The notes below the pieces were generated by a model that saw nothing but the letters and a program-made list of their open reading frames with translations, did no database searches and was not told where the DNA came from. Of a stretch of 41,286 nucleotides of DNA, positions 8,804 through 37,136 are shown one piece after another. Source of the DNA: a virus (Duplodnaviria; Heunggongvirae; Uroviricota; Caudoviricetes). Location: IMG/VR virus record IMGVR_UViG_2565956711_000007; one strand, given 5' to 3'. The number at the start of each line of letters is the position of its first letter. Position 1 is the first letter of the stretch. The translations under genes and the position numbers were made by a program.

Positions 8804-9772
8804 TTAGTAGGTTATTTTTGTTGCGAATACTTCGCCTTTTACGATGGCTGTTATGATATTTTTAGCAACATCTTCTGATGCGCCAACCTTGATAAGGTCA
8901 GCAAGTATTTTGTTATTTACTTCTTTCCGGTGAGCTTTATCCTTTGCTCTACGCTCTTCTTCTTCCTTGATTCTTTTTTCTTCTGCTATTCTGGCTTGCT
9001 CTTTTGCTTCAGCCTCGCGCCGGATTCGTTCAGCCTCCTCCTGTGCTTTTCTGCGTTCTGCTTCAATTGCTGCCTGCTTTTCTCTTTCAGCTCGTTCTGC
9101 TGCCTCTTTTGCTTCGCGCTGTGCTCGTTGCTCGGCTTCAATGCGTTCACGCTCTGCACGTTCCGCTGCGGCCTTAGCTTCTGCTTCTCGCCTTGCTGCT
9201 GCTTCAATTTCGGCTTTTGCCTTTGCTTCGGCTTCAGCTCTGGCTTTCTCTTCAGCTTCTCTTTTTAAGCGTTCTTCATGCTCTCGCTTTTCCTGCTCCG
9301 CTTTGAGTCTTGCCTCTTCTCTTTGGCGGTCAAATTCGCGATCCATCAAAATCGCTATTTCATGGTCAGACTCAATTTGCTTTGCGAGAGCTTCAGCTGC
9401 TGACTTAGCTTCTTCTTCGGCTTTAATCCGTGCCTGTTCCTCCTCATAATCAGTAAGAGGCTGGCGCGCCTTGGCTTTCAGTTCATCAAGGCGATCACGC
9501 ACTGTCTTGCGGTTAGCATCAATTAGCTTTGGAATTTCCTTCAGTTCAGCAACAAGGTCTTTGCCAAGACCATCGAGATATGTTTTCGTCTGCGCAACTT
9601 TATACGCCAGAGAAGCGATCTCCTTTCTGCCCTTTGCCGTTGTGATATCAGGCACAAAGGACATAACTTCACGTTCAACCTTTTGGAGAATTTCTTCAAT
9701 CTGGTCGGCAGACTGAAATACAGTCATTGCATTTGCTTTTTCAATAACAACTAAATCTGTTACTTCACTCAT
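8804..9772 (-). CDS. Hypothetical protein with long E/R/K/A-rich charged helix (single-alpha-helix or coiled-coil like)
   Basis: 322 aa from ATG 9772 (GGAGG 4 nt upstream); about 150-residue low-complexity EAERAEREKQAA-type segment between structured N- and C-terminal parts. Confidence 0.65.
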   Translation of the reverse strand: MSEVTDLVVIEKANAMTVFQSADQIEEILQKVEREVMSFVPDITTAKGRKEIASLAYKVAQTKTYLDGLGKDLVAELKEIPKLIDANRKTVRDRLDELKAKARQPLTDYEEEQARIKAEEEAKSAAEALAKQIESDHEIAILMDREFDRQREEARLKAEQEKREHEERLKREAEEKARAEAEAKAKAEIEAAARREAEAKAAAERAERERIEAEQRAQREAKEAAERAEREKQAAIEAERRKAQEEAERIRREAEAKEQARIAEEKRIKEEEERRAKDKAHRKEVNNKILADLIKVGASEDVAKNIITAIVKGEVFATKITY

Positions 9773-9916: not shown

Positions 9917-10387
9917 CTAATAAAACACCCAATTTTCTGTTTCTTTGTTGTGTCCAAAGTTATATTCAATATCTGGTGTTGATGTATCAATATTCTTCAT
10001 CCCATCAACAAGAGTTGATACAACAGCCAAATCTTGTTTGATTCTCATCAAATGGTATTTCTTCCGGCGCAATAAACTTTCAATGGCAAGTTTCTTCGTC
10101 GGGAACGCAAAAGATCTTTCTGCATTTTTTGCTACTTTCTTAATTGCATATCTATTTCTCCTTTGTTTCCATTCCTGTAACCACTGATTTGGTGCTGGTT
10201 TAAAATTAACAATCCAATGCGCAGGAACCAACCATGCATAATGCTCTGTCTGATGAAAAGCTATATATTGAAGTGCGAATATTTTGATTCCATCTTCTTC
10301 AACTGTCGCTTGGAATCTCCAGAAAACAGGCATTCCATCATGTTCAGTTTCTGATTCAGGAAAAGGTACGCTCCATGATTTTGTCAT
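9917..10387 (-). CDS. Hypothetical protein (156 aa), AT-rich, Trp-rich
   Basis: Intact ORF immediately following the upstream stop; visibly lower GC than flanks. Confidence 0.55.
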   Translation of the reverse strand: MTKSWSVPFPESETEHDGMPVFWRFQATVEEDGIKIFALQYIAFHQTEHYAWLVPAHWIVNFKPAPNQWLQEWKQRRNRYAIKKVAKNAERSFAFPTKKLAIESLLRRKKYHLMRIKQDLAVVSTLVDGMKNIDTSTPDIEYNFGHNKETENWVFY

Positions 10388-10390
10388 ATA

Positions 10391-10642
10391 TTACTCATCT
10401 CCAATGGCTTTGCTGATTGCTGACAGTGCTTTCGATACTTCATCAGGATAATGGTCATCCCAGTTTTGCTTGTATGCCTTGTTTAGCATCGCTTGCAGAG
10501 CTTCGAGCAAATCAGGAGCTGCCTCCATCAATCTCACATCACCTCGATGGATGGTTGTATCGTCAAACGTGAAATAAACCCCATCATCGTTAAATCCAGC
10601 GCCAACAACATTCCATGGCCTTTTCATTCTTCCTACTGTCAT
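10391..10642 (-). CDS. Hypothetical protein (83 aa)
   Basis: GAGGTGA 4 nt upstream of ATG 10642. Confidence 0.5.
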   Translation of the reverse strand: MTVGRMKRPWNVVGAGFNDDGVYFTFDDTTIHRGDVRLMEAAPDLLEALQAMLNKAYKQNWDDHYPDEVSKALSAISKAIGDE

Positions 10643-10674
10643 TATTCACCTCTGTTGTTTATGCCAAAGCAAAT

Positions 10675-10917
10675 TTAACCATCAACAAACTCTTCTGGTA
10701 ATTTATCAACCAGTTGATGACTTATTATCAGCCATTTGCCATCCTTCGTTTCGTATGCATATTTCTGGTCTTTTATCATCATGTGTTCGGCTACTGCCCT
10801 AACTGCCTGATCGGTGACATCTTCTCTCTTTCCTACCCACATTCCTTTTTCAGTGTTTAATGTTCCTTGAAAAATACGACCACTTAATGGGCTTGCGCCC
10901 ATAGTTTTTACTCTCAT
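10675..10917 (-). CDS. Hypothetical protein (80 aa)
   Basis: GAGG 8 nt upstream of ATG 10917. Confidence 0.5.
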   Translation of the reverse strand: MRVKTMGASPLSGRIFQGTLNTEKGMWVGKREDVTDQAVRAVAEHMMIKDQKYAYETKDGKWLIISHQLVDKLPEEFVDG

Positions 10918-10981
10918 GTATCAGTCCTCAAATAAGTGGTTTGCTGCCAAAACAATGAACCATCCGGAAATTCCAGATAGT

Positions 10982-11206
10982 TCATAATTCACTCTTCAAT
11001 ACTTCCAGCTTACTAATCGCCGAAAGATATCCGCGCTGATAGGGCATCATCATTCCTTCGAGCTTGCCACTTCTTAACTCCTCCCTGAGCAATTGTATTG
11101 CTTGATCAATAACCTCTGCCTTAGCGTCCTTTATGGCTTGCTTTCGGGGCTTTGCTTTCTGCTTTGGCAGATTTCTCAAGCATGATGGAATGTATGTCTG
11201 ATTCAT
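10982..11206 (-). CDS. Hypothetical protein (74 aa), basic N-terminus
   Basis: ATG 11206 with GAGG 6 nt upstream, directly after N stop. Confidence 0.5.
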   Translation of the reverse strand: MNQTYIPSCLRNLPKQKAKPRKQAIKDAKAEVIDQAIQLLREELRSGKLEGMMMPYQRGYLSAISKLEVLKSEL

Positions 11207-11209
11207 CAC

Positions 11210-11593
11210 TTACCTCGCCGTCAGTTGTTTTGATTTCCGGTAGCCTGCCGCGTAAATGGCTACGTTTGGAAGACATACACCAGTTTCTGGTTGCTTATGT
11301 CCAAACTCATTCGCGTACACAATGGCCGCTCGCTCCAGATTGCGTCTGTATTCTTTCTGTTGCCAGATCACGTCCTGTGCCATGAACTTAATTGGCTTAG
11401 CGTCTTCTATGCGCTCAGGCGTTTCGTGAGTACCTTTAGCCTGAATCTGCGCTCTGCTTAGAGTAGGGCGGTGTAATACTTCTGAACTTATTGCTTCTTC
11501 GCGGGCCAGTACGCCGTTAGCTAATGCCTTTGCCTTTAAACGCTCACGACGACGAGAACGTGAATTGCCTTTGAACTGAGTTCTGCGTGTCAT
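11210..11593 (-). CDS. N: Antitermination protein N (P22/phi21-like type)
   Basis: 127 aa; N-terminal arginine-rich motif SRSRRRERLKAKA; AGGAGG 5 nt upstream; preceded by P22-type nutL boxB. Confidence 0.8.
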   Translation of the reverse strand: MTRRTQFKGNSRSRRRERLKAKALANGVLAREEAISSEVLHRPTLSRAQIQAKGTHETPERIEDAKPIKFMAQDVIWQQKEYRRNLERAAIVYANEFGHKQPETGVCLPNVAIYAAGYRKSKQLTAR

Positions 11594-11854
11594 ATAGACC
11601 TCCTGATGAACTTTGGTGGTGTGGTGGCTGGTAGTCTAGCTCCAGCTTGTTGAGTCTCATTCGGAGGGGTATAACCGGCACCCCAGTGATTTTTCCATGC
11701 GACAACGTGCGCGTTATGGCGGCCTTATCGCCCGCGGCTCCCCATCTCGTCCACGCTATTGCTAGCGTTGGGAGCGCTTCACCGCTCAACAGTAGGTAAG
11801 CACTTGCCAGTGACTAGCTGGCTTCACCACACCCCAAAGTTCACTTTGGTTATT

Positions 11855-11869
11855 GCGCTTTGTCAGCGC
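11855..11869 (-). promoter_or_regulatory. nutL boxB hairpin (P22 type)
   Basis: Minus-strand GCGCTGACAAAGCGC, identical to the P22 nutL boxB sequence as I recall it; no canonical boxA found upstream. Confidence 0.7.
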
Positions 11870-11937
11870 CGTAGATTCATATTCGAATCGTTGTATATTC
11901 ACCGCCCTGGTGAGTAATGCGTCCTGCTGATGGCTTA

Positions 11938-12023
11938 AAGATAACTTAGGTTATAGGTGTGGTCAATAACCTAATTTATATTTTATGGTAAATAAGTTAT
12001 AAGTGATGGATAACAAAGGTATT
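11938..12023 (-). promoter_or_regulatory. pL promoter with OL operators
   Basis: Minus strand -35 TTGACC (11961-11966), 17-nt spacer, -10 TATCTT (11938-11943); operator-like ATAAC-N4-GTTAT at 11941-11954, degenerate copies at 11966-11979 and 12010-12023. Confidence 0.55.
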
Positions 12024-12152
12024 TTATTTTTGTAAATGTTGCTGATTGATTGGTGTTTGAGGGCTTGCGTGCGGGGTGAAGGTGTTACCTTTGGCTTGAT
12101 GCTTGTCTATGATGAGGATGGTTGATTGGGTGGTGAACGGCAGGAAAAGAAA

Positions 12153-12178
12153 ACCCGGCGCTGAGGCCGGGTGTTTTT
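12153..12178. terminator. Bidirectional rho-independent terminator ending the cI operon
   Basis: Stem ACCCGGC / GCCGGGT with 6-nt loop, T-runs on both sides; overlaps stop codon of the 98-aa ORF. Confidence 0.7.
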
Positions 12179-12473
12179 AGTCTTTTCTTTTGCTTAGCAT
12201 TTCGTCGATTTCTAAGTCAATACGATATTGATCTATTGCTTTTCTCTCGTTTGGGGTTGGTATTTTATACTGTTCAATTAGATCTGTTGTGTATTTTATT
12301 TCATCTAATGTTATTTTTATATCAGAGAGAATCTCTTTTATATCAATTATATGCTCTTCTTCTTTTGCGCGATTAGAGCTATGTTCAATCATTTGAGATA
12401 GCTTTTTGCTAATGCTTAGCAAAACAAAAAGAATGATGACCAAAACAACAACAAAAACTATCAGAAATTCCAT
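12177..12473 (-). CDS. Hypothetical small membrane protein in the rexAB slot, co-transcribed with cI
   Basis: 98 aa; N-terminal TM helix EFLIVFVVVLVIILFVLLSI then charged helical tail; GGAGGG RBS; 40 nt downstream of cI on same strand; strikingly AT-rich. Confidence 0.7.
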   Translation of the reverse strand: MEFLIVFVVVLVIILFVLLSISKKLSQMIEHSSNRAKEEEHIIDIKEILSDIKITLDEIKYTTDLIEQYKIPTPNERKAIDQYRIDLEIDEMLSKRKD

Positions 12474-12513
12474 TATCCCTCCGCACTTCCGTAAGTCTTC
12501 TTCTGATTATCGG

Positions 12514-13221
12514 TTACCAACTATGAGACGACCAGAATACTCTGCCAATAATCCTTACGGTTTCATGAAATTCATCTCTATCCATTACTTCATCCGGGTA
12601 CTCTTCGCGATTTATTGATCTGATTATCACCGATGTAGGGGTGGCGATTAATGTTTTTACTCGTAACAAATCAGACTGGCAAATAGCGTAGGTTTTACCA
12701 TCTCTGATTGTGGTATCTTGCGTGTTAACACCAACAACATCGCCATCGTGAAGGGTTGGTTCCATGCTTTGCCCTACAACCCTAACTAGCTTGGCTGATC
12801 TTTCAGATACTCCCATCTTTTTCAGATAGTGCTTTCTGAAAACCAAAGAGAACTCCGATGATTCCTCTAGCTCGCAGCTACCGCTTCCAGCTGAAAGCGA
12901 AACGTTAAGAAGAGGCAACGCAACAAACTCGTCATCGTTTCTTTTAATGTCTTCCCATACCACAGCTTTTAAAGATGACTCACGGACATTGGATGGTTCT
13001 TCATGTGCACCATCCCTCATTTCACCAATACCAGAACTAAGCCATTCAGGACGCACTTTTAAAGCATTGGCTAATTCAACCATCTTGCGAGATCCGTTTG
13101 TTTTACCGGACGACATCTTCTGTATGGCTGGCTGAGATATTCCAACCATGTCAGCAAGCTGTGATTGTGATACCCCTGCTGAGCTCATGGCTGCATTTAG
13201 TCTTTCTGCGAATGTTTTCAT
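12514..13221 (-). CDS. cI: CI-type prophage repressor (HTH plus S24 LexA-like autopeptidase domain)
   Basis: 235 aa from ATG 13221 (likely leaderless); HTH QSQLADMVGISQPAIQKM; S24 motif GQSMEPTLHDGDVVGVN; not the lambda cI sequence. Confidence 0.88.
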   Translation of the reverse strand: MKTFAERLNAAMSSAGVSQSQLADMVGISQPAIQKMSSGKTNGSRKMVELANALKVRPEWLSSGIGEMRDGAHEEPSNVRESSLKAVVWEDIKRNDDEFVALPLLNVSLSAGSGSCELEESSEFSLVFRKHYLKKMGVSERSAKLVRVVGQSMEPTLHDGDVVGVNTQDTTIRDGKTYAICQSDLLRVKTLIATPTSVIIRSINREEYPDEVMDRDEFHETVRIIGRVFWSSHSW

Positions 13222-14024: not shown

Positions 14025-14870
14025 ATGACAAATACAGCAAAAATACTCAACTTCGGCAGAGGTAACTTTGCCGAACAGGAGCTAAGAGTGGCTGATATCG
14101 ATGATGGTTACACCAGATTCGCTAACGAGCTGCTGGAAGCTATCGCAAGTGCCGATTTAACCGCTCGCCAGTTGAAAGTTATGCTGGCCTACGTCCGGAA
14201 AACATATGGCTTCAATAAGAAAACAGATCGAATAGCCGATGAGCAAATTGCTCAGTTAACAGGACTGTCAAGGCAGAATGTTAACAAGGCTAAAAAAGAA
14301 CTGATTTCAATGAATTGCCTGTTTATGGATGGAAATCAAATCGGTGTAAACAGGGAGGTATCTGCGTGGCAATTCAGCAAGTGTCTCCAAGTTAGCAACT
14401 TTGTCTCGAAGTTAGAGACAAAAAATGTCTCCAAATTAGAGACACTCAATGTCTCGAAGTTAGAGACACACAAAAGACATTCTTTAAAGACAAAAGAAAA
14501 TATTAATAAACCCCCTATATCCCCCAAAAAAATTTCTCAGAAGTTCGACCCGCTAGAAACAGAGTTGCCTGATTGGTTATCGGCAGAAACATGGTTGTCG
14601 TGGGTTACCTATCGCAAGGAGATAGGTAAGTCGATCAAGTCTAAGCAAAGCGTCACTCAGGCTATCAACGTTCTAAGCAGAAGTCTGGAGAAGGGATATA
14701 CACCTGAAGAAATTATAAACCAGAGCATCGCCAGTGGTTGGCAGGGGATTTTTGAACCCAAGACTCCAAAGGGGAAATCTCAACCTAGGCCGCAGCAGCG
14801 AGCTATGCAGGAAAACTTTGCCGCCAAAGATTACGGGCAAACTGAAATGCCTTCATGGGCGCAGGAGTGA
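14025..14870 (+). CDS. O: Replication initiator O
   Basis: 281 aa; N-terminus MTNTAKILNFGRGNFAEQE close to recalled lambda O; origin iterons inside the gene. Confidence 0.9.
   Translation: MTNTAKILNFGRGNFAEQELRVADIDDGYTRFANELLEAIASADLTARQLKVMLAYVRKTYGFNKKTDRIADEQIAQLTGLSRQNVNKAKKELISMNCLFMDGNQIGVNREVSAWQFSKCLQVSNFVSKLETKNVSKLETLNVSKLETHKRHSLKTKENINKPPISPKKISQKFDPLETELPDWLSAETWLSWVTYRKEIGKSIKSKQSVTQAINVLSRSLEKGYTPEEIINQSIASGWQGIFEPKTPKGKSQPRPQQRAMQENFAAKDYGQTEMPSWAQE
14381..14535. repeat. Replication origin: four about 20-bp palindromic iterons plus AT-rich region
   Basis: Iterons around TGTCTCGAAGTTAGAGACA at 14381-14400, 14401-14420, 14426-14445, 14450-14470, followed by AT-rich 14471-14535. 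Confidence 0.8.
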
Positions 14871-30651: not shown

Positions 30652-32070
30652 ATGCCGATTCAGCAACTTCCGCTTATGAAAGGTGTCGGCAAAGACTTTC
30701 GAAACGCTGACTATATCGACTATCTGCCAGTGAATATGCTGGCTACACCCAAAGAAATACTCAACAGCAGCGGATATCTTCGCTCATTCCCGGGCATTGC
30801 CAAACGTTCTGATGTGAATGGTGTATCGCGCGGTGTCGAGTACAACATGGCGCAGAATGCTGTTTATCGCGTGTGTGGTGGCAAGTTGTATAATGGCGAA
30901 AGCGAGGTCGGTGATGTTGCCGGAAGTGGTCGCGTATCAATGGCGCATGGGCGAACATCTCAGGCGGTAGGCGTTAATGGTCAACTGGTCGAGTATCGCT
31001 ATGATGGCACGGTTAAAACAGTCTCAAACTGGCCTACAGACAGCGGATTCACTCAGTATGAGTTAGGTTCGGTTCGCGACATTACGCGCTTACGTGGGCG
31101 TTATGCGTGGTCAAAAGACGGAACTGATTCATGGTTTATCACTGACCTTGAAGACGAATCGCACCCTGACCGATACAGTGCGCAATATCGCGCAGAATCG
31201 CAGCCTGACGGCATCATCGGCATAGGTACATGGCGAGACTTCATCGTCTGCTTTGGTTCATCGACGATTGAATATTTTTCCCTGACAGGTGCAACCACCG
31301 TTGGTGCCGCTTTGTATGTCGCACAGCCATCGCTGATGGTGCAGAAAGGTATTGCCGGGACTTACTGCAAAACGCCGTTTGCTGATTCGTATGCGTTCAT
31401 CAGCAATCCGGCAACTGGTGCGCCGTCTGTATACATCATTGGCTCCGGTCAGGTGTCACCAATCGCCAGCGCGAGCATTGAGAAAATTCTCCGCTCCTAC
31501 ACTGCTGATGAACTGGCTGATGGTGTGATGGAGTCTCTGCGATTTGATGCGCATGAGCTGCTGATTATCCATCTTCCGCGCCATGTTCTGGTGTACGACG
31601 CATCTTCAAGCGCCAATGGTCCGCAATGGTGTGTGCTGAAAACAGGCCTGTATGACGATGTGTACCGCGCTATCGACTTCATTTACGAAGGCAATCAGAT
31701 AACGTGCGGCGATAAGCTGGAATCGGTTACTGGCAAATTGCAGTTCGATATCAGCAGCCAGTATGGGCTTCAACAGGAACACCTGCTGTTTACTCCACTG
31801 TTCAAAGCGGATAACGCCAGAGTGTTCGACCTTGAGATTGAATCGTCAACTGGCGTTGCGCAGTATGCTGACCGCCTTTTTCTCTCTGCAACCACTGACG
31901 GCATCAATTACGGGCGTGAGCAGATGATTGAGCAGAATGAACCGTTCGTTTACGACAAACGCGTTTTGTGGAAGCGAGTAGGGCGCATCAGGAAAAATGT
32001 CGGCTTCAAATTGCGCGTTATCACGAAGTCACCTGTCACTCTGTCTGGCTGCCAGATAAGGATTGAGTAA
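30652..32070 (+). CDS. Tail hub protein (P22 gp10-like)
   Basis: 472 aa, same length and position as P22 gp10. Confidence 0.85.
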
Positions 32071-32771
32071 TGGCTGATTCGAATCTCAACACCCCTGTTA
32101 TTGTGCAGGCGACGCGGCTCGATACATCAATACTTCCACGCAATATCTTCTCGCAGTCGTATCTGCTTTACGTTATTGCACAGGGCACTGATGTTGGTAA
32201 CGTAGCTAACAAGGCCAACGAGGCCGGACAGGGTGCTTATGACGCACAAGTCAGGAACGATGAGCAGGATGTGATTCTGGTCGATCACGAAGAAAGAATT
32301 CGTCAGCTCCGCATTGAAGTAGATGACCATGAAATCCGTATTGCTGCGAATACTGCGGCAATTGCAGCGCTGGATGTCAGACTAACCACGGCTGAGGGAG
32401 AAATAGTCACCTTACAGGATGACGTCAGCGCTCTTGATGGCCGGGTTACGACTGCTGAGAGCAACATTTCTGCATTACAGGACGACTATGTATCGAAAAC
32501 AGCCACTGCAACACAATCGCTGGCATCTCCCCTCAATGTAACAACATCCTATTCGGTCGGCGGCACCAAGGTTATTGGTGCTCGTCAGACAGGGTGGACG
32601 CCGGGAACTGGTACCGCCAATCTCGGCACTTTCAATGCCGATCAGTCATTCACTGTCGGCGCGGCATACTCACAGGCAGAGGTTAAGGCCATTGCCAATG
32701 CGCTTATAGCGGCTCGCAAACGCATTCTGGCGCTTGAGCAGGCCATGAGAACCCACGGACAAATCGACTAA
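32070..32771 (+). CDS. Tail needle / cell-envelope penetrating protein (P22 gp26-like)
   Basis: 233 aa; N-terminus [18 protein letters not shown] and coiled-coil heptads as in gp26. Confidence 0.9.
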
Positions 32772-32779
32772 GGACACCC

Positions 32780-33148
32780 ATGTTAACAAAAATCGATGCT
32801 CTCACCGGGCAGGGGTTGATGCGCCTGTGGGGCGTCCCTTCATGGCCTGATTTCGATGCCAGTTACTGGCTTTGGGAGGTTTGCGGAGTGTTCGTGACGA
32901 TTGACCATGGCGACCACGTCGACCTACACATGGCGATGAAGCCTGGCGAGCGCCACCGATGCCGGGATGCCGTGGCGGATGTATTGGGGATGATTGGCGA
33001 CCGGGAAGTGCATGCACTGATTGAGGATCAGTACAAGAAGGTCACTAACCTGGCAAAAAAAATGGGATTCCGTCACGAAGGGATGTTCACAGGTGAACGC
33101 CTCGACGGTTCCGTGACAAAAGTAATCAAAATGGTGAGGTTTGTATGA
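32780..33148 (+). CDS. Virion protein in P22 gp14 position
   Basis: 122 aa; AAGGA SD; assignment by position only. Confidence 0.5.
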   Translation: MLTKIDALTGQGLMRLWGVPSWPDFDASYWLWEVCGVFVTIDHGDHVDLHMAMKPGERHRCRDAVADVLGMIGDREVHALIEDQYKKVTNLAKKMGFRHEGMFTGERLDGSVTKVIKMVRFV

Positions 33149-33741
33149 GCTTTGTAGGCAAGGCGCTAAATAGCGTTGTGGGTGGCATCACTGGCGCTAA
33201 TAAGGCCGCCGATGCTCAGATAGGCGCGGCGAAAGACTCTAACCAGATGGCCTGGAATATCTACCAGGACCAGAAGAAAACCAACCAGCCATTCCTGAAT
33301 GCAGGATTGACCGGTTTAACAGGGTTGCAGGGTATTGCAGGTAAGCCAATCGACCGTAACGCCTCGCTCGCTGAGTATTACGCGTCTCCGGAATACCAAA
33401 TGCTTAGCGACCAGGCTCGCTATCAAAGCCTTAATGCTGCGGAGGCAACCGGCGGCCTGGGGTCAACCGCTACCGGGAATATGCTCGCTTCTATTGCACC
33501 ACAGCTCGGGCAAAACTACCTGTCAATGCTGACCGATCAGCAGAACAACATGTACGGCCAGTTGCTCGGCCTCACTAACGTAGGGCTTTCTGCGGCAGGA
33601 GCTAACAACGCGGCGGCTGGCGATTACTCAAACGCTTATGGCAATAACATGCAGCAGATCGGGGCTTCCAAAGCAGGCAAGGCGCAATCCGGCTTCAATT
33701 CGCTTATGCAGATTGGTGGCGTGGCTTCTGGCTTCTACTAA
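33145..33741 (+). CDS. Ejection (internal) protein, gp7 position
   Basis: 198 aa; Gly/Ala/Asn-rich; by position. Confidence 0.6.
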   Translation: MSFVGKALNSVVGGITGANKAADAQIGAAKDSNQMAWNIYQDQKKTNQPFLNAGLTGLTGLQGIAGKPIDRNASLAEYYASPEYQMLSDQARYQSLNAAEATGGLGSTATGNMLASIAPQLGQNYLSMLTDQQNNMYGQLLGLTNVGLSAAGANNAAAGDYSNAYGNNMQQIGASKAGKAQSGFNSLMQIGGVASGFY

Positions 33742-33757
33742 ATATCAGAGGTGAATG

Positions 33758-35062
33758 ATGGTTGTCGAACCTATTGATTATTCTGCGTCCACTGGTCGCG
33801 CACTGCTTCAAGGGCTTACTGCTGGCCGGGCAATTCAGGGGATGCGTCAAACTTCTCAGGAGATGGATGCGGCAGCACAGCAACGAGAGCGCCAGCAAGC
33901 CGCATATACTGCGTTGCAGAATGCCAGGCCGGAGGATTTACCAGCGCTGCGCATGCAGTATCCAGAGTTTGCAGATGTTATTCAGAAAGAAATCGGCATT
34001 CAGGATGCTGAACATGCAGCGTTCGTTAATAAGGCGCTCAATAACCTCTCGGTGGCCTATGCATCAGGTAACCCGCAGATGATGCAGCAAGCCATTCATT
34101 CCGGCGCCCCGGCATTAGCTTCGATGAATGTTCCAGCTGATGAAGCTTGGCAGCTCTATCAGAGCGATCCGCAGCAGTTCGGCTCCCTGTTGAAAGCGTC
34201 AATGTACGCAACGATGCCTATTGAGAAGCAGGTAGATGCGCAGCAGAAAGAAGCTGAACTTAAGGAGGACGCCCGCCAGGCTGACATGCAGAACGCCACC
34301 ACGCGACAGGGGCAGCAGCTCTCATATGGCGCTCAGATGGCTCGTCTGAATCACGATAAATACGTATACAGGCAGTCACAGGCGGCGCTTAAAAAATATG
34401 GCGACGTTCAGGACATGGACACCCTGGCGTTAAACTCTCAAATCGCCTCTACGGGAGTTGACCCTTTAACCGGCAAGCCAGCAACCGGCGCGCGAATGGG
34501 GCAGGCCAGAAAGTGGCTTGAGGGTAATAACGGCTATAACGAAGCGCTAATCACTGGCGAAAGGGGGATCGAGAAGATTGATTCCGTACTGGGTAAGCCA
34601 GAATTAGAAGGCATTGGCAGGTATGCGGGAAGGATGCCTGATGCAACCACCTCAGAAGAGGGCCTGTCGAACAGGAACGCCATTGAAGAGCTTAAGTCTG
34701 GCGCTTTCGTTCAGAACGTTCAGATGCTCAGAGGCTTGGGAGCACTGTCGAACGCAGAAGGCAGCAAGCTCGAAAACCTGATCGCCCGCCTCGATGTTAC
34801 ACAACCAGCTGACGTGGTGAAAAAGCAGCTTGGAGAAATTCGCAGCCAATATTCTGTACTGCAAAAGGTGGCAGGCCGTGAAGCTGAGTCCATGGGCTAC
34901 AGCTCGCAGGGTTACGATACCTATGTGTCAGAAAGGCAAGCGCAGAAGGATCAACCGCAGGCAGGCGCAGCAGGGCAGTCAACTCGTGAAGGCATGACAG
35001 CCACAAATCCAAAAACGGGGCAGCAAATCATTTATAGGAATGGGAAATGGCAACCGATGTAG
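33758..35062 (+). CDS. Ejection protein, gp20 position
   Basis: 434 aa from ATG 33758 (GAGGTG 5 nt upstream); by position. Confidence 0.65.
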   Translation: MVVEPIDYSASTGRALLQGLTAGRAIQGMRQTSQEMDAAAQQRERQQAAYTALQNARPEDLPALRMQYPEFADVIQKEIGIQDAEHAAFVNKALNNLSVAYASGNPQMMQQAIHSGAPALASMNVPADEAWQLYQSDPQQFGSLLKASMYATMPIEKQVDAQQKEAELKEDARQADMQNATTRQGQQLSYGAQMARLNHDKYVYRQSQAALKKYGDVQDMDTLALNSQIASTGVDPLTGKPATGARMGQARKWLEGNNGYNEALITGERGIEKIDSVLGKPELEGIGRYAGRMPDATTSEEGLSNRNAIEELKSGAFVQNVQMLRGLGALSNAEGSKLENLIARLDVTQPADVVKKQLGEIRSQYSVLQKVAGREAESMGYSSQGYDTYVSERQAQKDQPQAGAAGQSTREGMTATNPKTGQQIIYRNGKWQPM

Positions 35063-37017
35063 GATTACCTGAAGGTTTTGTACTGGATAGTCAGTCTGAC
35101 AATTCACAATTGCCAGAAGGTTTTGTGCTTGATTCGCAGCCATCTACTGATAATTCACTTGCATCAGGATATGCACAGCTTGCTACTCAGCAGAAGGAAG
35201 GTCTAGATCGCTCTGCTGAGCAAGGGGCTGGGTTAGGTGCTGCAATGCGCGATGCCGTTACTGGTGAAAGCCGGATGACACCAGAAATGGAGAGATTGCA
35301 AAATGTTGGTTCTGCTCCAGAGCTTAATAGCCTAAGCACCGACGCGCTGCGTGCTGGATGGGGTCAACTATTTGGCTCCGACGCTTCACAGGAGAAGATC
35401 CTACAAAGCATGGGCGGGAAAATCAGACAGGATGAGAAGGGTAATTCCATCGTCACTCTTCCTTCTGGCGAATATGCACTTAACAAGCCTGGCCTGTCAC
35501 CGCAGGATGTAACGTCATTCCTGGCAAACGCCCTTGCATTCACCCCAGCAGGCAGAGCAGGGTCTGTTGCAGGTGCAACGTTAAAGTCAGGTGCTACTGA
35601 TTTAGCCATACAGGGGGTTACACAGGCGGCAGGCGGTGAGGACATCAATCCAGCTCAAGCTGCAATTTCCGCTGGCCTTGGTGGGGTATTGAAAGGAGCT
35701 GAAAACACCGCAAGCGCTGTGTCCCGTTCGGCCATGGGTAAGATAGCACCTGAAAAGCAGGCGCAGATTGATTTTGCCAGGCAGAACAACCTGCCACTGA
35801 TGACAACAGATCTTGTGGAACCGGGAACAAATATTGGTAAGCAAGCACGAGCTATGGCTGAGCGAATCCCAATAGCCGGAACAGGTGGGATAAGAAATGC
35901 ACAGCAAAAGGCCAGGGAAGATTTAGTTAGAACATTTAGCGATAATGTTGGCGGAATATCTGACGCACAACTTTACCAATCAGCTACTCGTGGTCAGCAG
36001 CAATTTATTCAGGCTGCTGGCAAGAGGTACGACAGGATCATCAGTTTGATGGGGGATACTCCTGTTGACATCACTGGAACAGTGAAAGCAATTGATGATC
36101 AGATTTCCAAGTTAACTCGCCCAGGAGTATCGCAAGACCGCTCAGCTGTTTCTGTCCTTCAACAGTTTAGAAATGACATCACCAGCGGTCCAAATAACCT
36201 GCAATTAGCTAGAGAAAACCGCACAAACTTACGTAAGCGCTTTATGGCAGCACCTGACGAGGTCGATAGAGATACGCTGGAGAAAGCTGCGCAGTCTGTT
36301 TATAACGCATACACAACGGACATGAAAAAAGCGGTTGGCGCAAAACTAGGTGCGAAGGAAGCGCAAAACATGTCGCGTGTTGATCGTTCTTGGGCAAAGT
36401 TCAACGACATGATGAGCAATACACGTGTCCAAAAAGCTATTCAGAGTGGTAAAACAACGCCAGAAGATGTCACTAAACTAGTATTCAGCCAAAGCCCAGC
36501 GGAAAGGGCGCAACTTTATAGATTGCTTGATGACAAGGGGAGGCAGAATGCTAGGGCTGCAATTGTTCAAAGAGCCATGGATAAAGCTGTGAAACCTAAT
36601 GGGGAACTGAGCGTTGAGAATTTCATTAATGAAATGCATCGAAATAGGAAGCAGGCAGCGACTTTCTTTCGTGGTGAGCACGGAAAACAACTTGATGGGG
36701 TGATTAAATATCTTGACTCAACAAGGCAGGCGGCAACAGCAGCGGCTAGCCCTCTTACAGGACAAATGTTCGCTGGCCCAGCAGCCTTGGTGACAGCTCT
36801 AACCTCATCAATTAGCCCTCCAGTGGCAAAGGTAGCGGCAGTCGGCACTGCGATTGGGTTGGGTGGTAGAGCATATGAATCAAGAGCAATGAGAAATGCA
36901 TTGCTAAAACTTGCTAATACCCCAAAGGGAAGTACAGCCTATGATCGAGCTATCAGAAATGTATCTGAGAAACTAGCTCCAATAATGCAGGCCTCTGTTG
37001 AAAAGGGTCAGCAATGA
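35047..37017 (+). CDS. Ejection protein, gp16 position, with N-terminal duplicated LPEGFVLDSQ motif
   Basis: 656 aa; 30-nt direct repeat at 35065-35094 and 35110-35139. Confidence 0.7.
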   Translation: MATDVGLPEGFVLDSQSDNSQLPEGFVLDSQPSTDNSLASGYAQLATQQKEGLDRSAEQGAGLGAAMRDAVTGESRMTPEMERLQNVGSAPELNSLSTDALRAGWGQLFGSDASQEKILQSMGGKIRQDEKGNSIVTLPSGEYALNKPGLSPQDVTSFLANALAFTPAGRAGSVAGATLKSGATDLAIQGVTQAAGGEDINPAQAAISAGLGGVLKGAENTASAVSRSAMGKIAPEKQAQIDFARQNNLPLMTTDLVEPGTNIGKQARAMAERIPIAGTGGIRNAQQKAREDLVRTFSDNVGGISDAQLYQSATRGQQQFIQAAGKRYDRIISLMGDTPVDITGTVKAIDDQISKLTRPGVSQDRSAVSVLQQFRNDITSGPNNLQLARENRTNLRKRFMAAPDEVDRDTLEKAAQSVYNAYTTDMKKAVGAKLGAKEAQNMSRVDRSWAKFNDMMSNTRVQKAIQSGKTTPEDVTKLVFSQSPAERAQLYRLLDDKGRQNARAAIVQRAMDKAVKPNGELSVENFINEMHRNRKQAATFFRGEHGKQLDGVIKYLDSTRQAATAAASPLTGQMFAGPAALVTALTSSISPPVAKVAAVGTAIGLGGRAYESRAMRNALLKLANTPKGSTAYDRAIRNVSEKLAPIMQASVEKGQQ

Positions 37018-37034
37018 GTTTTAGCCAAGGATGG

Positions 37035-37136
37035 CTAGTTGCTTTCTAAATCTTTAACTCGCTTCTTGAGAGCCACTAACTCTGCATAGAGTGCGCAACA
37101 GGCTATGCCAAGCACGAATACGATTATTTCTAACAC
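37035..37136 (-). CDS. Putative small hydrophobic peptide (33 aa)
   Basis: GTG start with AGGAGG 5 nt upstream; MLEIIVFVLGIACCALYAELVALKKRVKDLESN; too short for the ORF track. Confidence 0.25.
   Translation of the reverse strand: MLEIIVFVLGIACCALYAELVALKKRVKDLESN

Follow-up and report, generated by a model that had tools for sequence, protein, structure and literature searches.

A two-copy peptide motif at the N-terminus of a P22-like gp16 ejection protein is strictly paired with the C-terminal tail of its gp20 neighbour

Why does an ejection protein carry the same ten-residue peptide twice at its extreme N-terminus? The question is raised by a gene in IMG/VR record IMGVR_UViG_2565956711_000007, a 41,286-nt stretch of viral DNA (Caudoviricetes) that is referred to here as the window. 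Gene order and family matches show that the window is the genome of a P22-like (Lederbergvirus-type) phage. An initial annotation made without database searches, the sequence-only reading, had placed the gene (35047..37017, + strand, 656 aa) at the position of gp16, an ejection (DNA transfer or injection) protein. This placement is borne out by a match of residues 36–650 to phrog_770 ('DNA transfer protein', E 2.4e-159) and by the gene order gp10-gp26-x-gp7-gp20-gp16. We found 332 gp16 homologues, the top ones carrying a precomputed PF26808 assignment and the name 'injection protein'; a search of gp16 against local Pfam returned no match. Judged by the homology of its body and its place in the operon, the protein appears to be an ordinary member of the gp16 family.

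The N-terminus, translated from the 35047-37017 open reading frame (ORF), reads MATDVG-LPEGFVLDSQ-SDNSQ-LPEGFVLDSQ-PSTDNS. The first copy occupies residues 7–16 (35065..35094, + strand, TTACCTGAAGGTTTTGTACTGGATAGTCAG) and the second residues 22–31 (35110..35139, + strand, TTGCCAGAAGGTTTTGTGCTTGATTCGCAG), with a start-to-start distance of 45 nt, or 15 aa. The sequence-only reading had the positions exactly right, and both copies lie in the frame of the 656-aa ORF. It had also called the two 30-nt segments near-identical, which is correct for the peptide and too strong for the DNA, where 23/30 bases are the same. All of the 7/30 differences are synonymous, and even the serine codon, AGT in one copy and TCG in the other, belongs to a different codon family. 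A repeat search of the window gave 84% identity across a 25-nt core of the two copies, and Tandem Repeats Finder, run on the window, did not call the repeat. Across all six frames of the whole window it is the sole local peptide repeat of at least eight residues, none of that length arose in 50 codon-block shuffles, and the pattern xPxGFx[LIVMF][DENQ] occurs nowhere in the window besides the gp16 copies. Since the window holds no other such repeat and the shuffles hold none, we conclude that the LPEGFVLDSQ repeat is real and non-random.

It had been described as a tandem duplication, and two identical 10-aa peptides lying 15 aa apart are what a recent, selectively neutral event of this kind would leave behind. 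The repeat itself stands, whereas its recency does not: the copies have diverged at seven of their 30 bases, always synonymously, copy number is nearly fixed at two (48/53 loci in an unbiased set from distant phages, among the matches listed; see below), and there is no copy-number polymorphism among close relatives. A constant peptide with heavily diverged synonymous sites points to an old repeat under selection at the peptide level, and we regard a recent neutral duplication as next to impossible.

The first clue to what the repeat might do lies in the gene directly upstream, which encodes the gp20-position ejection protein (33755..35062, + strand, 435 aa; phrog_2534 'released from the phage upon host infection', E 5.8e-73) and follows a gp7 homologue. 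Its C-terminal tail, GMTATNPKTGQQIIYRNGKWQPM, contains the motif GMTATNPKTGQQIIYRNGKW, followed by QPM and the stop codon (34991..35050, + strand), and this is the only match to the corresponding regular expression in the window. The consensus of such tails, EGxTATNPxTGxxhxhxxGxW, describes a small Trp-containing β-hairpin or three-strand unit, and more than 150 loci encode proteins with the motif at a terminus.

To follow the two elements beyond the window, DNA was scanned with degenerate, N-rich patterns representing either two LPxGF motif copies at fixed spacing or the hairpin alone. The two-copy scan gave 50 viral loci, of which 49 were real; the hairpin was present in the upstream ORF in 49/49 of these and at its very end in 48/49. 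The hairpin-alone scan gave at least 120 loci. From the matches listed we took the unique loci new to that scan that had the hairpin no more than five residues from the C-terminus and a downstream ORF (n=53), and in 53/53 the pattern xPxGFx[LIVMF][DENQ] occurred within the first 120 aa of the next ORF, once in three loci, twice in 48 and three times in two. When the matches listed from both scans were pooled (68 unique loci), the commonest spacing between copies was 14–15 residues (range 11–28), with the first copy usually beginning at residue 3–10. The resulting consensus is [LI]PxGFx[LIVM]D in two copies about 15 aa apart, and in the alignment conservation is confined to the hairpin and the two motifs, while the spacers vary in length and composition.

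The pair is found in diverse metagenomic phages and in prophages of Alpha- and Gammaproteobacteria and Planctomycetota. Genomic carriers include Sphingomonas, Sphingopyxis, Phenylobacterium, Xanthobacter, Proteus, Providencia, Xenorhabdus, Symbiopectobacterium and Planctomycetota metagenome-assembled genomes, and in bacterial genomes two copies are present in 16/22 loci. Genes resembling gp7 and gp20 flank the pair even at L058, a divergent locus. Copy-number variation among homologues had been put forward as a check on the repeat, and two copies are present in all P22-like relatives that carry the cassette described below. The idea that the repeat may be an interaction motif is thus supported, in that a two-copy motif is kept in very distant phages while its spacer is not, and it faces a specific motif in the neighbouring protein. 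A further arrangement was seen in four loci (L076, L106, L133, L142), where the hairpin lies 15–17 residues before the C-terminus of a protein of ~265–310 aa. In L106 and L133 a small peptidase-like ORF comes next; L076, L106 and L133 then encode a 914–982-aa protein with a single LPxGFVLD near its N-terminus, and L142 has no LPxGF motif.

The two elements also occur in the opposite order. In another set of phages the hairpin lies at residues 3–10 of a protein, and in 10 viral loci and 8/10 genomic loci of this kind a single [LIP]PxGF[IV]LD closes the ORF directly upstream, with −4 to +12 nt between the two genes. We considered whether these loci represent a split gp20, and this could not be established: the ~240-aa hairpin-bearing protein is only weakly similar to the gp20 C-terminal region (phrog_2534, E 2.5e-6; hhalign E 0.004, probability 9%), and the upstream protein ending in LPxGF has no similarity to gp20. 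Two hairpin copies per protein were noted in L128 (6877-10614), in tandem at the N-terminus, and in L256 (4629-5276), at residues 3 and 199; in each the upstream ORF has a single LPxGF-type C-terminus. The reversed-order loci also carry a second junction pair, seen in alphaproteobacterial-type phages (L086, reverse complement 10101-12586; L121, 3638-6375; L066), in which a tail R[YW]NPxTGx[FI]E-stop is followed by MPIEIEGPDGxxYEFPDGT. This pair resembles the P22 pair with the gp20 tail SGIKFTVE-stop, and in L086 and L121 three consecutive proteins are joined by two different terminal pairs.

What, then, is inherited together at this junction? In the window it is an exchangeable cassette of ~160 bp (34984..35145, + strand), made up of ~25 codons at the end of gp20 and ~33 at the start of gp16. 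Kapi1, SEN22 and L006 share 79–81% nt identity with the window only within 34984/34988-35132/35142, their flanks being unrelated, and similarity of L262 to the window stops at 34977. Conversely, the gp16 body has its closest relatives in phage N7/HZ41 and in many E. coli prophages (88–89% nt identity); these are similar only from 35149 (~aa 35) onwards and have a P22-type gp16 N-terminus where the window has the repeat. Kapi1, SEN22, E212, EC.P3 and S.Kent 1-2-1 have only the first ~35 gp16 residues in common with the window, with unrelated bodies, and the gp20 end EGxTATNPKTGQxxIYRNGxWQPM is present in the window, Kapi1 and SEN22 but not in N7. Since these edges of similarity fall at 34977-35149, the ~160-bp cassette is the unit of exchange, and judging from such alignments it appears to move among phages as a whole. 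The interval 35065-35139 of the sequence-only reading therefore places the repeat correctly, but the functional unit is larger and takes in the C-terminal tail of the upstream gp20. An antisense ORF of 54 aa (34979-35143, − strand) covers the whole cassette; it lies within two well-supported genes, nothing supports it, and it is probably spurious.

The two genes overlap by 16 nt (35047..35062, + strand), as read from the sequence, and the gp16 ATG takes its A from the end of a lysine codon and its TG from the hairpin tryptophan codon (A, TG, G). The GenBank annotations of Kapi1 and SEN22 have the identical 16-nt overlap, and by the ORF-start rule used here the downstream start stands in the same register to the Trp codon in 53/68 unique loci. 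A start codon embedded in this way in a 16-nt overlap, together with cassette edges that are recombination junctions, could mean that the repeat acts at the level of nucleic acid, in translational coupling, as an RNA structure or as a recombination linker at the gene boundary. However, Rfam had no match in 34700-35500, conservation is at the peptide level, with synonymous change free both in the window and across the loci found with degenerate patterns, and in the reversed loci the motif is C-terminal. That hairpin and LPxGF face each other across the junction in either order makes an element acting at the nucleotide level hard to sustain, whereas it is predicted for a docking pair, and we consider a nucleic-acid role very improbable.

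Other P22-like phages show matched tails and N-termini as well. When 120 proteins homologous to the gp16 body were compared, their N-termini fell into at least six unrelated forms. We scored the junction in 76 P22-like loci, comprising 70 anchored on a 99%-identical gp10 and six reference loci. There were six unrelated pairs of gp20 tail and gp16 N-terminus and 0 mixed pairs among the 76. In the 70 gp10-anchored loci each N-terminal form occurred with exactly one tail form: tails ending SLWGD with MAKAWK (29 loci), FTVE with MKVTANG (23), the hairpin with LPxGF (7), LPSLGQ with MANYRD (5), KYLGGQ with MAYSRE (5) and YGYLP with MANFFD (1). P22 and Sf6 conform to this pattern. Every junction type was found with several clusters of gp20 bodies and of gp16 bodies, so the protein bodies do not explain the pairing, and the adjusted mutual information between junction type and the fine types of portal, scaffold, coat, gp4, gp10, needle, gp14 and gp7 was ~0.

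The clearest case of joint exchange is that of L260, a Citrobacter freundii prophage, and L262. Despite gp20 bodies that are 88–100% identical and gp16 bodies that are 95–100% identical, the two differ on both sides of the junction, where ~25 aa at the gp20 C-terminus and ~32 aa at the gp16 N-terminus have been swapped jointly: L260 combines the hairpin with two copies of LPEGFTLD, and L262 combines ASQFKAKYGYLP-stop (ending KAKYGYLP-stop) with two copies of NFFDQFD, its two genes being separated by 10 nt with no overlap. This second, unrelated two-copy gp16 form, MANFFDQFDE...GNFFDQFDE, was also seen in P0062, P0070, P0075, P0118 and others (in L262 at 2624-2720). It pairs with the gp20 tail ASQFKAKYGYLP-stop, and two copies thus recur in an independent cassette type. 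One further protein, P0091 (1019 aa, PF16928 + PF26808), was considered as a gp20-gp16 fusion and set aside as uninformative, being a deletion that joins gp20 at about residue 360 to the middle of a MAKAWK-type cassette, probably from a defective prophage.

Strict pairing could also arise if both modules bind a common third partner, either a host envelope component at the inner membrane or a phage protein, and so match this partner and not each other. In favour of this, the proteins that carry the motif and the hairpin differ from one phage group to another, as would be expected of portable targeting tags, and AlphaFold2 gave no convincing docking between the two elements. Nevertheless, the six unrelated pairs coexist with the same fine types of portal, scaffold, coat, gp4, gp10, gp26, gp14 and gp7 and in closely related hosts, and an invariant third partner would not require that tail and N-terminus be strictly paired. 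The motifs are, moreover, always on the facing termini of consecutive proteins, in either order, and hybrids of P22 and Sf6 demonstrate a need for gp16 and gp20 to match (PMC10461980). We therefore consider a common third partner unlikely.

These hybrids supply the functional background to the pairing. P22 with only the Sf6 gene 16 or only the Sf6 gene 20 is dead, whereas both together work (PMC10461980). Sf6 gp16 still assembles into P22 particles. Entry of gp16 and gp20 into virions is independent, but DNA delivery needs a cognate match, and in P22 gp20 the final 33 aa are essential (PMC10461980). The gp20 protein forms a dodecameric periplasmic tube whose C-terminal 'plinth' has been proposed as the template for assembly of gp16, modelled with six copies, and in AlphaFold3 models the extreme C-terminus of gp20 changes once gp16 residues 1–205 are added (bioRxiv 10.64898/2026.09.03.749273).

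Taken together, we think it probable that the gp16 LPEGFVLD repeats are a bivalent linear motif that docks onto gp20 C-terminal hairpins after ejection. The halves of the cognate pair would be the two-copy motif of gp16 and the C-terminal ~25 residues of gp20. Ejected gp20 would form the periplasmic tube with its C-terminal end abutting the inner membrane, and the gp16 N-terminus would then latch onto the gp20 tails, placing gp16 to complete the channel through the cytoplasmic membrane. A linear motif and a small hairpin seem suited to proteins that pass unfolded through the tail and must then reassemble fast, and two motif copies may give avidity. The anatomy of the junction, the strict pairing and joint swapping of its two ends, the conservation of two copies and the reversed order in other phages are all observed; we infer that the ends bind physically, that they do so after ejection and that bivalency has a role, either in avidity or in allowing one gp16 to hold two gp20 tails.

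In AlphaFold2 models of window chimeras the gp20 tail forms three short strands (TAT, QIIYR and KWQP) with a block-mean predicted local distance difference test score (pLDDT) of ~80–88. That the hairpin folds alone, and that its profile has a weak, non-significant match in the Protein Data Bank (PDB) to the T4 fibritin foldon tag of haemagglutinin constructs (P..GQ..V...DGEW, E 0.3–1.5), would also fit a foldon-like self-association unit that bundles gp20 C-termini. In that case LPxGF would have an unrelated role, for example as a flexible membrane-proximal or periplasmic segment, and co-occurrence would come from overlap and linkage, for which the embedding of the downstream ATG in the Trp codon at 53/68 loci offers a ready basis. 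Against this, the pair persists in reversed order where the genes barely or do not overlap (−4 to +12 nt), and cassette types without overlap keep strict pairing (L262, with its 10-nt gap). In addition, the L, P, G, F and D of the motif are conserved across phyla, which the spacers are not. We judge this explanation improbable.

The foldon resembles the gp20 tail in being a ~20-residue Trp-containing β-hairpin with an [DN]G turn (APRDGQAYVRKDGEWVLL vs NPKTGQQIIYRNGKWQPM) and a preceding [IL]PE[AG] segment, but it is the trimerisation unit of a fibre, the profile match is not significant and Foldseek against the PDB gave no match; the likeness to the foldon stands as a lead only. The tail is likewise reminiscent of a WW domain, a small three-strand sheet with a conserved Trp (as modelled by AlphaFold2) and a Pro-containing linear partner, and many loci read LPPGF, resembling the WW ligand PPx[YF]. 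However, the hairpin has no second Trp, no Pfam WW match and no Foldseek match in the PDB at E <= 0.001, and this idea was dropped.

Several observations temper the case for docking between the two proteins. In a first single-sequence AlphaFold2 chimera only two residues of repeat 2 entered a β-bridge (block-mean pLDDT 72 and 56), and in a second, consisting of the gp16 N-terminus and two tails, both repeats were disordered (pLDDT 43–47) while the hairpins folded. No solved structure or curated family with either motif was found by PDB profile search, Foldseek against the PDB, Pfam (motif search up to E 10) or NCBIfam. The two halves are physically adjacent, with the downstream ATG overlapping the Trp codon in most loci, so that some degree of co-inheritance follows from linkage alone. 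The published hybrids exchanged whole genes of the P22 and Sf6 cassette types and not the hairpin/LPxGF cassette (PMC10461980), and the few loci with one or three motif copies show that two are not obligatory.

How does the junction compare with better-known systems? P22 gp20/gp16 and Sf6 gp12/gp13 share the operon position and families of the window proteins (phrog_2534, phrog_770, PF26808), and P22 gp20 and gp16, which must be cognate, are believed to come together at the C-terminal plinth of gp20 (PMC10461980; bioRxiv 10.64898/2026.09.03.749273). Neither P22 nor Sf6 has the hairpin tail or the LPxGF repeats; the P22 junction is the SGIKFTVE-stop pair, and that of Sf6 is a third pair, NFSSLWGD-stop with MAKAWKDVIASPQYQ. 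Motif-level pairing is not described for either phage in the accessible literature. Full-text searches with variants of the LPxGF motif returned unrelated papers only, neither motif turned up in the searchable literature, and the motif pair and cassette behaviour appear undescribed in the searchable literature, whose coverage excludes Casjens and Thuman-Commike (2011) and Casjens and Grose (2016). In T7 an N-terminal segment of the ejection protein at the inner membrane stabilises the periplasmic tunnel protein at its C-terminal end (PMC8954989). T7 has no sequence relation to the window; its segment comprises ~70 residues (157–228), follows a transglycosylase domain and acts at a stoichiometry of 6:6, and unlike the window gp16 it is not a repeated eight-residue motif at the extreme N-terminus. 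In modular polyketide and non-ribosomal peptide synthases, matched short C- and N-terminal docking domains on consecutive gene products set partner specificity and are pairwise exchangeable. Those systems and their sequences are unrelated to gp20 and gp16, and the analogy is one of logic alone.

The surroundings of the junction are partly atypical. Upstream of gp20 the window encodes gp10 (30652-32070, PF11134), the tail needle (32070-32771), a 122-aa ORF at the gp14 position between the needle and gp7 (phrog_17333, unrelated to P22 gp14) and the 198-aa gp7 homologue (33145-33741, PF25688); ant and then the tailspike follow gp16. The ejection-protein set at 32780-35062 is atypical for P22-like phages: gp7 is without the N-terminal propeptide region and the Gly-rich C-terminal tail, gp20 is without the conserved MATWQQGINSGG N-terminus, and this 122/198/~435-aa set recurs in L260 and L262. 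An imperfect inverted repeat of 27 nt (74% complementary; 36885-36911 and 37017-37043) has one arm at the 3′ end of gp16 and the other just past its stop codon. Elsewhere in the window, three tandem 24-nt units (TGTCTCGAAGTTAGAGACACACAA, with the inverted pair TGTCTC/GAGACA) at 14402-14473 sit within an O-like replication initiator gene (14025-14870, phrog_678) adjoining a DnaC-like loader gene, and are probably origin iterons, which would be unremarkable in a lambdoid phage. A degenerate hexanucleotide array (GCTTCT x14, 61% matches) lies at 9177-9260 and is adjoined by a 15-nt repeat at 9275-9304.

Beyond the single pair, it is possible, and we put this forward only tentatively, that ejection proteins carry interchangeable terminal 'docking codes' that set the stacking order in the trans-envelope channel, and that in the hairpin/LPxGF code copy number may encode stoichiometry. 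On this speculative scheme the two motifs of each gp16 would each capture one gp20 tail, so that the gp16 N-terminus would serve as a 2:1 adaptor joining the 12-fold symmetry of the gp20 tube to the 6-fold symmetry of a gp16 assembly in the inner membrane, and the single motif copy at the upstream C-terminus of the reversed loci would fit a 1:1 ratio.

Current cryo-EM work has yet to answer how gp16 and gp20 recognise each other after expulsion through the tail, and how the dodecameric gp20 tube is coupled to gp16 at the inner membrane. Our findings point to a candidate interface of ~60 residues that is testable by mutation and is conserved from enterobacterial to alphaproteobacterial and planctomycete phages. 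A docking cassette that lies across the gene boundary would explain why mosaic junctions in genes 20 and 16 avoid that boundary, and suggests a rule for constructing functional hybrid phages, namely that tail and N-terminus be exchanged together. The hairpin and the LPxGF motif also provide two sequence signatures with which ejection-protein genes may be annotated in so far unannotated metagenomic phages.

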